A stretch of 64,000 nt of DNA, taken from an uncultured Dehalococcoidia bacterium. GTDB lineage: Bacteria; Chloroflexota; Dehalococcoidia; Lucifugimonadales; UBA826. The notes below the pieces were generated by a model that was given only the letters and a program-made list of their open reading frames with translations, was not told the DNA's origin and searched no databases. Both the position numbers and the translations under genes were made by a program. Positions 29,636 to 32,720 of the stretch are shown here, one piece after another (within the stretch, counting starts at the first letter, position 1; every line of letters starts with the position of its first letter). The stretch is from NCBI GenBank assembly GCA_964394975.1, contig CAYMZR010000002.1, positions 8,979 to 72,978 of the forward strand, written 5' to 3'.

Positions 29636-30301
29636 CTAAATGTGCCGAATAGCCTTTGATGCGGCTTCTTTTTCCGCGCGATTTCTACTAGTACTCTTGC
29701 CTGTTGCGATGACTTTCTCACCAATCAGAACTTCAACGATAAATGTTGGCTTATGTGGAGGCCCATATTTGCGGGCAATTCTGTAATGCGGTGATACTGA
29801 AAACTTACTTTGAGTTATTGACATCAGTTCAGTTTTTGGGTCATTTTTGCTAGCAATCCTTTGAGAACGTTTGGACATTACATCCAAATTTTCCAATATG
29901 AATTCTTTTGCATTTAGATACCCACGGTCTAAGAAAAAAGCCCCCACCAAAGCCTCAAATGCATTGGCCAAATTGGAGTCTTTATTTCTTCCACCAGAAC
30001 CTTCTTCACCGTTACCTAGTAGCAACTGATCCCCTATCCCCAGTTTCCTAGATACTTTCGCTAGGTAATCCCCTTTTACGACACTACTCCTCAAAGTAGT
30101 TAATTCTCCCTCATCGAAATCTGGATATTTTTCATACACAGTTTCGGCTATCACAGCATAAATAACGGCGTCTCCCAGAAATTCAAGGCGCTCATTAGAT
30201 TCTTGTTTCGGGTTTTGGGACTCGTTAACCCAGGAGGGATGCCTCATACTCAAATCAAACAAATTTCTATTGGTAAATCTATCCTTCAGATTATGAGGCA
30301 T
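29636..30301 (-). CDS. rnc: ribonuclease III
   Basis: ERLEFLGDAV signature and a C-terminal dsRBD (KTELMS...GKSTSRNRAEKEAASKA). Confidence 0.92.
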   Translation of the reverse strand: MPHNLKDRFTNRNLFDLSMRHPSWVNESQNPKQESNERLEFLGDAVIYAVIAETVYEKYPDFDEGELTTLRSSVVKGDYLAKVSRKLGIGDQLLLGNGEEGSGGRNKDSNLANAFEALVGAFFLDRGYLNAKEFILENLDVMSKRSQRIASKNDPKTELMSITQSKFSVSPHYRIARKYGPPHKPTFIVEVLIGEKVIATGKSTSRNRAEKEAASKAIRHI

Positions 30302-30323
30302 CTAATCAATTATCCAAACGGCT

Positions 30324-30953
30324 CTACACCGCGCCTTTGGGCCAAGGTGGCTGAGGACGTTTGACTTCCCCTATATAGGACCTGCTTTCAAACAGACCAA
30401 GAAAATGTGTGAATGCATCTAGCGATTCCTCTTCAGGCGGAATAAATGTTTTCAAATAGGCAGATTGCCCATTATCAAAAATAAAAGTTGGGGTTCCAAA
30501 GGCTCCATGAACCTCCGTTGCTTCGGTATGATCTCCCGCAATTATTTTTACTAACTCAGAATCCTTCATATCGGATTGAAACTTCTCAGCATCCAATCCA
30601 CATTCTTCAGCTATTTGAACAAACAAAGATTCATCGTTAAGCGGAGCTCTATCCCCACCGTGCCTTGCAGTAAGAAGGGCAAGGAAAAATTTATCGAATA
30701 GCTCCGGACCTTGTCTTTTCGCTGCCTCACCTGCTATTGAGGCCATTAAAGACCTGGTTGTACTATAATCCTCTTCCTGCCAAACTCGCCAATCACCTGG
30801 ATCTTTTGCGTTTATTTGTTGCAGTGAAAAATTCCTCCAATTAAGTTGAAGATTTTCACCATAATGTTCTTTGACTTTATCCAGCCACACGGCTGCATTG
30901 TAAACATAAGGTCAAGCAAAATCGAAAAATACGTCGAATTCCATTTTATCCAT
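30324..30953 (-). CDS. DsbA-fold (FrnE / HCCA isomerase / GST-kappa-like) protein with an in-frame TGA at the active-site position; candidate selenoprotein
   Basis: The ORF track starts at the GTG at 30890. The same frame upstream reads ATG(30953)...MDKMEFDVFFDFA-TGA(30914-30912)-PYVYNAAVWLDKV. This restores the missing N-terminal FDFx[C/S]P[FY]xY motif with TGA on the nucleophile. GGGAGAG lies just upstream of the ATG, and a hairpin lies 16 nt after the TGA. Confidence 0.6.
30879..30898 (-). promoter_or_regulatory. candidate bacterial SECIS hairpin
   Basis: The mRNA reads 5'-AAUG CAGCC GUGU GGCUG GAUA-3'. It forms a 5-bp G/C-rich stem with a GUGU loop, plus 2 further A-U pairs below a G.G mismatch. 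The stem starts 16 nt downstream of the in-frame UGA. Confidence 0.45.
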
Positions 30954-31074
30954 GTGACTCTCCCGTTTTTGTAAGTACGCTATCGTTAGTTTACCGTAAT
31001 TTATCAGCAATAATAAAACAATTTCTGAAAACTGATTTATTCCCCGATTTATTCAATGTTGTTGCTCTCCGAGT

Positions 31075-31092
31075 TGTTACACTTCGTTAACA
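31075..31092. promoter_or_regulatory. inverted repeat TGTTA-N8-TAACA (possible operator) in the long glnA upstream region
   Basis: TGTTACACTTCGTTAACA was read directly. It resembles, but does not match, the TnrA/GlnR (TGTNA-N7-TNACA) and NtcA (GTA-N8-TAC) site geometries. Confidence 0.2.
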
Positions 31093-31283
31093 TGGACGCA
31101 ATATGAAGGCAACAAAGCAATTAGATAATCGACGATCATTAAATCATTAATAGGGAGCACCAATAGTAAGCTCGGTCCAGCAATAATATACAGGAAAGTA
31201 GAAAAATACGAAGGATTGCTAATATCGCAAGCGAGTCAGCAGAATTACTTAAATTAATGAATATTAATGGTTGTAAAATTTGT

Positions 31284-31312
31284 TTGACACTTTTTTCACA
31301 AATGATTACTCT
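31284..31312 (+). promoter_or_regulatory. candidate sigma70-type promoter for glnA
   Basis: TTGACA (31284-31289), a 17-nt spacer, then TACTCT (31307-31312), about 70 nt upstream of the ATG at 31383. An AAAGGA SD precedes the start. Confidence 0.4.
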
Positions 31313-31382
31313 TTAATGCCTATATTTTGGCTATACACGAAGCAAAAACAACACACCAGAGCCCTCTAAAAAGGATTTCTGT

Positions 31383-32720
31383 ATGCTGGAAAGGAACGGT
31401 GAAGCAGTTGAATACGCTCTTAGAGAAGCGCGGGAAAATGACGTAAAATTCATCCGTCTCTGGTTCACCGACATTTTAGGCAGCATCAAAGGTTTCGCAA
31501 TTACCGTTGAAGAACTCGAGAACGCTCTTACAAGAGGCATGGGCTTTGACGGGTCTGCCATCGAAGGATATGCGAGGGAGGATGAAAGAGACCTGTACGC
31601 GCTCCCCGACCCTACAACCTTCAACATATTACCTTGGCGCCCAAAAACTAACGCCGTTGCAAGAATGTTCTGCGACATTGTCACACCTGATGAAAAGCCA
31701 TTCGAAGGTGATCCTAGAAATGTGCTAAGAAGAAACTTGAAAAAAGCTTCAGATAAAGGTTATACCTATTATGTGGCTCCTGAGATTGAGTATTTTTATT
31801 TCAAAGACGAAAAAAGTACAGATTTTCTCGATTCCAGTGAATACTTTGACCAAATAACTCCTAATCCAGGAACTGACCTTAGAAGAGAGACCGTTCTCAC
31901 CCTGGAAGAATTAGGTATACCTGTTGAATCAAGCCACCATGAAGCAGCACCAAGTCAACACGAGATAGATTTGAGGCATACCGACGCGTTAACGATGGCC
32001 GATACTGTTATGACTTACAAATTAGTTGTAAAAGAGATCGCCTCCAGCCATGGCTATTTCGCCTCCTTTATGCCGAAACCTGCCTCAGGGATAAATGGAA
32101 ACGGAATGCACACACAAATGTCTCTGTCCAAAGGGGACGAAAACATTTTTTATGGAGAAAATGATCAACATCGTCTCTCGGACACGGGACGTCAATTCTG
32201 CGCAGGTCTGTTAAGGCACGCTAGAGAAATAACACTGGTTACCAACCAATGGGTGAATTCATATAAACGCCTGGTTCCAAGCTACGAGGCCCCGACCTAC
32301 GTAACTTGGGCTGAAGTTAACAGGTCAGACTTAATCAGAATCCCATCATACAAGCCAGGGAGAGAATCCTCACGAAGAATAGAGTACAGAGCACCTGATC
32401 CTGCCTGCAATCCATACCTTGCATTCAGCGTTATGCTATCTGCAGGATTGGAAGGAATAGAAAAGGAATACGAATTACCTCGGTCTCTAGAAAAAAGTGC
32501 TCATGATATGACAAGTTTTGAGCTTAAAGAGTTAGGCATAGAATCCTTACCAGGAAACCTTTGGGAAGCTATTCAAGTTACAGAACAAAGTGACTTAGTA
32601 AAAAAAGCTCTCGGGCAGGATGTTTTCAATAGTTTCATAGAAAATAAAAAGATTGAATGGGATAGATATAGCGGACAAATTTCACAATATGAATTAGACA
32701 GGTATTTACCCACCCTATAA
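31383..32720 (+). CDS. glnA: glutamine synthetase, type I (short, about 445 aa form)
   Basis: FIRLWFTDILGSIKGF beta-grasp, NGNGMHTQMS, and RIEYRAPDPACNPYLAF. Confidence 0.95.
   Translation: MLERNGEAVEYALREARENDVKFIRLWFTDILGSIKGFAITVEELENALTRGMGFDGSAIEGYAREDERDLYALPDPTTFNILPWRPKTNAVARMFCDIVTPDEKPFEGDPRNVLRRNLKKASDKGYTYYVAPEIEYFYFKDEKSTDFLDSSEYFDQITPNPGTDLRRETVLTLEELGIPVESSHHEAAPSQHEIDLRHTDALTMADTVMTYKLVVKEIASSHGYFASFMPKPASGINGNGMHTQMSLSKGDENIFYGENDQHRLSDTGRQFCAGLLRHAREITLVTNQWVNSYKRLVPSYEAPTYVTWAEVNRSDLIRIPSYKPGRESSRRIEYRAPDPACNPYLAFSVMLSAGLEGIEKEYELPRSLEKSAHDMTSFELKELGIESLPGNLWEAIQVTEQSDLVKKALGQDVFNSFIENKKIEWDRYSGQISQYELDRYLPTL

Follow-up and report, generated by a model that had tools for sequence, protein, structure and literature searches.

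A hairpin of 20 nucleotides (nt) on the minus strand (30879-30898) of the window, meaning the whole 64,000-nucleotide stretch of contig CAYMZR010000002.1 (assembly GCA_964394975.1) from an uncultured Dehalococcoidia bacterium, is very probably a bacterial selenocysteine insertion sequence (SECIS) element in the mRNA of a DsbA-like selenoprotein. It follows shortly after an in-frame UGA at codon 14 and is itself translated, as N-A-A-V-W-L-D. The comparison of orthologues is decisive for this assignment, whereas the stability of the single sequence is weak evidence.

The hairpin and its coding frame

When TGA is read as selenocysteine (Sec, U) the frame of the gene is open from the ATG at 30953-30951 to the stop at 30324 and contains a single in-frame TGA; the read-through product matches the Pfam family PF01323 (DSBA) over residues 7-162 (E 5e-17). 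The Sec residue lies in the motif FDFA-U-PYVY-NAAVWLD, with D11, U14 and P15 as numbered in the protein. The features of the gene and the hairpin are as follows.

30324..30953, minus strand: gene of the DsbA-like selenoprotein, 209 codons, motif D-F-A-U-P-Y-V without a second Cys
30958..30964, minus strand: Shine-Dalgarno-like GGGAGAG, 5-11 nt 5' of the ATG at 30953, read from the sequence
30914-30912, minus strand: UGA codon 14, read as selenocysteine; orthologues have an aligned TGA, or else TGT/TGC
30911-30896, minus strand: 16-nt spacer from the UGA to the upper stem, CCUUAUGUUUACAAUG, its last three bases (A30898, U30897, G30896) lying in the lower stem
30879-30898, minus strand: probable SECIS hairpin in its extended form, AU-G-CAGCC-GUGU-GGCUG-G-AU, drawn from RNAfold, frozen synonymous sites and pair counts
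30895-30891, minus strand: CAGCC, forming the 5' arm of the upper stem (columns 20-24 of the alignment)
30890-30887, minus strand: apical loop GUGU, its GpU being G30890 and U30889
30886-30882, minus strand: GGCUG, forming the 3' arm of the upper stem (columns 29-33) from the Trp codon UGG and the Leu codon CUG
30881, then 30880-30879, minus strand: G of the G.G mismatch, then AU, the 3' side of the lower stem

An earlier note, made from the letters alone, had described this hairpin, and its coordinates, the 16-nt spacing, the CAGCC-GUGU-GGCUG stem-loop and the codons are correct to the base. Folding of 30860-30914 on the minus strand (55 nt) with RNAfold returns the hairpin at -11.5 kcal/mol, including both of the lower A-U pairs that the note had drawn around the G.G mismatch, and the minimum free energy (MFE) of the 36-nt core is -9.8 kcal/mol. 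In the predicted fold the 5' arm, AUGCAGCC, is without a bulge, and upper and lower stem are parted by the G.G mismatch alone.

Conservation in selenocysteine forms and decay in cysteine forms

Orthologues were collected by a scan of one genome per species, which reported at least 471 relatives and from which 80 loci of SAR202/Dehalococcoidia were taken. A strict motif search matched 76 of the 80, one of them twice, to give 77 matches, in which the aligned codon is TGA in 74 and TGT in three and the peptide upstream is conserved; the four loci without a motif match also carry TGA, by protein alignment. Genome searches at phylum and class level brought in further, more distant forms, and most class-level relatives have TGA at the aligned position, the rest having TGT or TGC. 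Sec and Cys classes were called from DNA only, because full-length "Cys" entries in protein databases were judged unreliable; P0095, for example, shares its N-terminus with the TGA locus L059, and P0012 and P0013 show W at the Sec site, as expected if TGA was translated as Trp. In one Chloroflexota contig (L047) there are tandem paralogues at 580 and 1539, both with TGA and an identical GCA GCC GTG TGG CTG hairpin.

A codon-by-codon comparison of 75 Sec forms (TGA) from SAR202/Dehalococcoidia, with protein identities of 49-94%, shows that codons +5 to +11 (AAT GCA GCC GTG TGG CTG GAT) have a synonymous entropy of only 0-0.6 bit. CTG is used in 75/75, GCC and GTG each in 72/75, AAT in 68/71 and GAT in 66/68. 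Third positions of the flanking codons are free, with entropies (H) of 1.64 bits at Pro+1 and 1.68 bits at Val+3 (four codons) in the spacer, as are those of Val+13 (1.92 bits, four codons) and Leu+21 (2.38 bits, all six codons). Moreover, the frozen AAT and GAT oppose the preference of the same genes for C-ending codons, which is seen at -3 (GAC 56 vs GAT 19) and at +4 (TAC 53 vs TAT 13). Because the element must both encode conserved residues and fold, the only bases free to differ are third codon positions, and it is these that are held almost invariant.

The hairpin stem is lost in the only close Cys forms, a clade with TGT made up of L038, L040, L044 and the metagenome copies L123-L127, whose codons at this site are GCA GCT ATT/GTT TGG TTA/CTA or ACT GCA GTT TGG TTA. 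A metagenome scan with the alignment of this clade found five loci only, all from the lineages L038, L040 and L044. In a maximum-likelihood tree the clade sits on a long branch, nested within a Sec clade with good support of which the window sequence is a member, and the simplest reading is that in the L038/L040/L044 clade Sec was replaced by Cys and the hairpin then decayed. The conservation that the earlier note had called for is thus found: the stem is kept in essentially all Sec orthologues and lost in the close Cys clade, and the changes that occur keep the pairing. A second Sec/Cys switch is seen between L089 (Sec) and L098 and L101 (Cys).

Over the wider set a position-specific rule was applied, namely that a stem of at least 4 base pairs (bp) include at least three G-C pairs, that one of the first two loop bases be G and that the loop begin 19-24 nt past the codon; it is satisfied by 115 of 120 Sec forms as compared with 9 of 29 Cys forms. 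A comparison by mean MFE (Sec -11.1, Cys -12.4) was dropped as confounded, the distant Cys forms being from genomes of high GC content.

Pairing in the stem

Pairs were counted on named structures, by alignment column, over 119 distinct Sec forms. Columns 20-23 pair with 33-30 in 95-97% of these, and G25 and U26 in the loop are nearly invariant. Pair 21:32 is AU in 97 and GU in 17, while pair 22:31 is GC in 115 and AU in two, the latter by a change of Ala to Thr along with CUG to UUG. The lower stem carries true compensatory changes: pair 18:35 is UA in 85, CG in seven and GC in six, and pair 17:36 is AU in 78, UA in 11 and CG in four. Between the two stems, position 19:34 is a G.G mismatch in the window's clade and G-C or G.U in 41 others.

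Across the family the element is a 4-bp core stem with a loop of 4 or 6 nt. The "perfect 5-bp stem" of the earlier note holds in the window and its clade; its fifth pair, C24-G29, is confined to that clade and is unpaired in 40 of the 119 Sec forms. Distant Sec forms have other hairpins at the same site, such as ACGCGGC-GGUCUG-GCUGCGU (L103), UUGCAGC-AGUUUG-GCUGCAA (L135) and GGGAUA-UGGC-UAUCCC (L089).

A possible cross-loop pair at the apex

The GpU is flanked by columns 24 (third base of Ala+7, 30891) and 27 (third base of Val+8, 30888), and these two columns covary. Among the 119 Sec forms 24:27 is CG in 78, AU in 26, GC in six, UA in two, GU in one and another combination in six; it is complementary in 94% against 51% expected, and its mutual information of 0.97 bit is the highest of all column pairs in the 57-nt alignment. 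Other neighbouring third-position pairs give 0-0.29 bit, as expected, so that drift in base composition does not explain the 24:27 signal. By the author's count on the sequences and the tree, complementary double changes occurred in about eight lineages and non-complementary states in about five.

On this sequence pattern, there is perhaps an even chance that the functional apex is a 4-bp stem with a hexaloop N-G-U-N'-U-G, in which a cross-loop Watson-Crick pair 24:27 would present the GpU tip to SelB. Much of the 24:27 signal comes from a few deep splits, and the exceptions number five or six: two cases of A:C, one each of C:U, C:C and G:G, and G:A in L089 with its shifted hairpin. In the A:U class the cross-loop pair has an alternative, namely A24-U28 closing a GUU triloop. 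A two-base GpU tip with a cross-loop pair is reportedly the conformation seen by nuclear magnetic resonance in the SelB-bound fdhF element of E. coli. If the cross-loop pair is real, natural variation in an uncultured phylum would supply independent evolutionary evidence for that apex conformation.

Selenocysteine machinery and other candidate selenocysteine codons

The genome, a marine SAR202 (Chloroflexota) of 2.1 Mb whose nearest relatives are SAR202-cluster metagenome-assembled genomes, has a tRNA-Sec (selC, C37:1574-1671) together with selB (C114:3021-4889; 344 bits against a curated cut-off of 242), selA (531 bits) and selD (387 bits; C21:18757-19680). SelB carries the SelB-wing_2 and SelB-wing_3 domains, the winged-helix domains that bind SECIS elements, and shows homology to C-terminal SelB chains of known structure (1LVA, 1WSU, 2PJP and 5LZB). 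The selD gene itself has an in-frame TGA, in the motif SCAG-U-ASK; the structure downstream of it can be drawn in two ways, as UGCAG-GUU-CUGCA, whose loop lies 33 nt past the UGA, or as ACCUG-AUG-CAGGU.

The genome was scanned for in-frame TGA codons that have coding potential to either side and are followed by a hairpin, and candidates were then examined with Pfam, whose domains span the TGA in nine of the ten candidate proteins scanned. Supported in this way are GrdB-like, OsmC-like, thioredoxin-like (S-U-PYC), rhodanese, UGSC, AhpD/CMD-like (CKY-U), glutaredoxin-like (G-U-GPC), MerB-like (two TGAs) and ferredoxin-thioredoxin-reductase-beta-like proteins. A second GrdB-like copy and a second, partial UGSC copy were outside the Pfam scan and are assigned by sequence similarity only. 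Counting both of these and SelD, which is supported by its match to the selD family, there are at least 13 further candidate Sec UGAs, on C4, C11, C12, C21, C22, C24, C36, C97, C109, C136 and C147. At 12 of the 13 a stem of 5-8 bp is found with its loop beginning 17-22 nt after the UGA, the exception being SelD with its GUU loop at 33 nt, and the loops mostly contain GU (GUA, GUU, GUG, GGUC, AGUUGA). The window's GUGU loop at +21 fits this loop consensus.

The MerB-like frame (alkylmercury lyase, PF03243; C109, minus strand) has its TGAs at offsets 1664 and 1868, 68 codons apart, each with a hairpin of its own (loops GUU at +18 and GGUC at +19), and from its sequence it looks like a double selenoprotein gene. 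The selenoprotein families of the genome are mostly listed already (PMC1088965, PMC13188914); a description of a SAR202 selenoproteome was not found in the open literature.

Comparison with known SECIS elements

The bacterial SECIS (bSECIS) model (Zhang and Gladyshev 2005, restated in PMC13188914) has a loop of 3-9 nt, an upper stem of 4-16 bp, a G at one of the first two loop positions with, in most cases, G or U next after it, a distance of 16-37 nt between the UGA and the apical loop, and an MFE of -7.5 kcal/mol or lower. The window's hairpin lies within all four constraints of the model, with a 4-nt loop, a 5-bp stem, GU in the loop, a distance of 21 nt and an MFE of -9.8 or -11.5 kcal/mol, and the SECIS-like spacing, size and loop G that the earlier note had pointed to are thereby confirmed against the published rules (PMC13188914). 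It also shares with the model its place as a coding-region stem-loop right after an in-frame UGA that is aligned with Cys in homologues, a structure kept in Sec orthologues and relaxed in Cys ones, and a full Sec machinery in the genome. It stands at the small end of the range, with an upper stem of 4-5 bp, a loop of 4 or 6 nt, and a weak lower stem containing the G.G mismatch.

The SECIS element of E. coli fdhF is a 40-nt hairpin, of which a minimal 17-nt upper stem-loop begins 11 nt after the UGA and in which U17, G23 and U24 are needed (PMC8659212). Both elements are in-frame hairpins with GpU at the loop tip, and both are accompanied by a SelB with winged-helix domains. The window's GpU (G25/U26) is 2 nt further from the UGA than that of fdhF (G23/U24), and its stems begin later, at 16 nt (upper) and 13 nt (lower) from the UGA as against 11 in fdhF; the element is also far shorter, and there is no sequence similarity between the two.

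With regard to the fdhA SECIS-SelB complex of Moorella thermoacetica (PDB 1WSU), the C-terminal part of the SelB found here is homologous to the 1LVA and 1WSU chains. In the relatives L090, L103, L140 and L169 the loop is GGUCUG, and the window's own loop is GUGU. The loop of the Moorella thermoacetica fdhA element is said to be C[GGUCU]G.

Evidence against the assignment, chance controls and alternatives

Several observations weigh against the SECIS assignment. Dinucleotide shuffling gives z = -1.04, with 33 of 200 shuffles as stable, so that the stability of the fold which the earlier note had predicted, and which RNAfold did return, does not by itself set the hairpin apart from shuffled sequence. 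RNAalifold on 79 sequences finds four pairs only, with zero compensatory change in them. The window's 5' arm has no bulged U like the U17 of fdhF, and a search of 30300-31400 against Rfam yields no SECIS family even at E values up to 10, only noise (the whole window has nothing at gathering score). Lastly, 9 of 29 Cys forms satisfy the hairpin rule, and in the high-GC Cys relatives L108-L110 a similar small hairpin, GCC AUG UGG CUG, arises from codon bias alone. Two of these results are constrained by the setting of the hairpin: it is so short, and so placed inside a coding region, that dinucleotide shuffles are uninformative, and because its 3' arm consists of Trp UGG and Leu CUG, double changes in the upper stem are nearly impossible and none come from RNAalifold. 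The Cys forms that pass the rule belong for the most part to genomes of high GC content, in which GCC, GUG and CUG are the favoured codons in any case.

Synonymous-codon resampling was used in place of shuffling, with the protein held fixed and the codon usage of this genome applied over 60 nt. The observed MFE of -15.3 compares with -10.1 +/- 2.5 for the resamples and is reached by 2.8% of them, and all five Watson-Crick pairs are kept in 0.7%. This shuffled-codon control, which the earlier note had suggested, places the hairpin in the top 0.7-2.8% of synonymous resamples. Around random genomic TGA triplets a hairpin of at least 5 bp with at least three G-C pairs and G in the first two loop bases is found 16-37 nt away in 4.8%, with its loop start at 17-22 nt in 1.3%, and with both that position and a loop beginning GU in 0.19%. 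On the one sequence the hairpin is modestly beyond chance, and the comparative data lift it far above chance.

It is very unlikely that the hairpin is a by-product, without a role, of a conserved A-A-V-W-L peptide whose codons (GCN GCN GUN UGG CUN) tend to be self-complementary, some other signal serving for Sec. The amino acids alone do set two of the five pairs, and such a by-product would be in keeping with the weak shuffle score and with the small hairpins of L108-L110. However, the other three pairs hang on the synonymous choices Ala GCA, Ala GCC and Leu CUG, and essentially every Sec form retains these pairs, which the nested Cys clade has lost; CUG, used in all 75 Sec forms compared by codon, is a rare codon, about 11% of Leu codons in this genome, the rarity of the full stem among resamples points the same way, and no other conserved structure is seen within 57 nt. 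Since conserved structure alone does not name its ligand, the hairpin might instead be an mRNA structure of another function unrelated to SelB, such as a folding pause, an RNase site or a determinant of mRNA stability. This too is highly improbable, for the hairpin tracks TGA and vanishes with TGT or TGC, and its position and GU loop match both the other Sec codons of the genome and the published bSECIS model.

That the frozen bases mark an internal start, at GTG 30890, of a truncated selenium-independent isoform beginning MWLD is scarcely credible and was rejected: the GTG is kept in most Sec forms as counted above, and most database entries start there, but no purine run comparable to GGGAGAG lies 5' of it, whereas the ATG at 30953 has that Shine-Dalgarno-like sequence, the truncated product would have neither the U/C of the active site nor the first beta-strand of a DsbA fold, other Sec forms have GTT, GTA, GTC or GGT at this position, which are not start codons, and the start codon would sit within the stem-loop.

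Proposed function and its interest

On the SECIS assignment, as the ribosome nears UGA codon 14, SelB, bringing Sec-tRNA(Sec) and GTP, would use its C-terminal winged-helix domain to bind the apex of the stem-loop 16-35 nt downstream, where the GpU occupies nt 22-23 after the UGA. With the ternary complex tethered at the A site, the UGA would be decoded as selenocysteine rather than read by RF2, and the ribosome would then melt the hairpin and translate N-A-A-V-W-L-D. This scheme, from SelB binding at the apex through tethering to actual Sec insertion, we infer from work on the E. coli and Moorella systems.

For a specialist the hairpin is most likely an ordinary, if clear, instance of a mechanism already known, expected rather than surprising, and the understanding of how SECIS elements work is unchanged by these findings. 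It is placed slightly above routine by how good the comparative signal is, by the covariation at the apex and by a large selenoproteome, with selenocysteine at 14 or more codons in one genome. Nature offers here a clean example of dual coding, in which seven codons are frozen at synonymous sites across some 120 genomes and decay once Cys replaces Sec, and as a very small element, of about 20 nt, it could interest selenoprotein engineers.

The start of the gene and the protein

The open reading frame (ORF) listing for the window puts the start of the gene at GTG 30890, which gives a 188-residue product beginning MWLD, and most database homologues are likewise of 188-191 residues with an MWLD start. 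This GTG (30890-30888) is a Val codon within the SECIS loop that ORF callers have taken as a start, and its use as such in most SAR202 copies in the databases is a mis-call; the correct product is not the 188-residue ORF but a protein of 209 residues, a DsbA fold of the single-Cys type in which Sec takes the nucleophile position. A full-length SAR202 orthologue of 210 residues is already in NCBI (MDP6064713.1). NCBIfam gives a weak match only, of 21 bits where the cut-off is 190, and this is to NF041057, a different family of seleno-lipoproteins.

DsbA-like selenoproteins have been described from the Sargasso Sea in a UxxC form with a predicted SECIS element (PMC1088965), and a "form 2, DxxUP", with MDP6049977.1 as its exemplar, stands in a table of a 2026 review (PMC13188914). 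The present protein shares with the known DsbA-like selenoproteins the PF01323 fold and Sec at the N-terminal Cys position of CxxC. By motif and domain it resembles form 2, its D-F-A-U-P fitting DxxUP, and it differs from the Sargasso Sea form in that the family here is UxxV/CxxV, without a resolving Cys. The closest solved structure, 7DK9 ("DSBA domain-containing protein"), has CPYA, and this together with its Cys-to-Ser mutant (7DKA) agrees with a single-nucleophile active site.

The active site reads U-P-Y-V in the window's protein and C-P-F/W/Y-V in the Cys forms, the second Cys being absent in both. The C-terminus of the protein, KRPQPPWPKGA, is nearly invariant.

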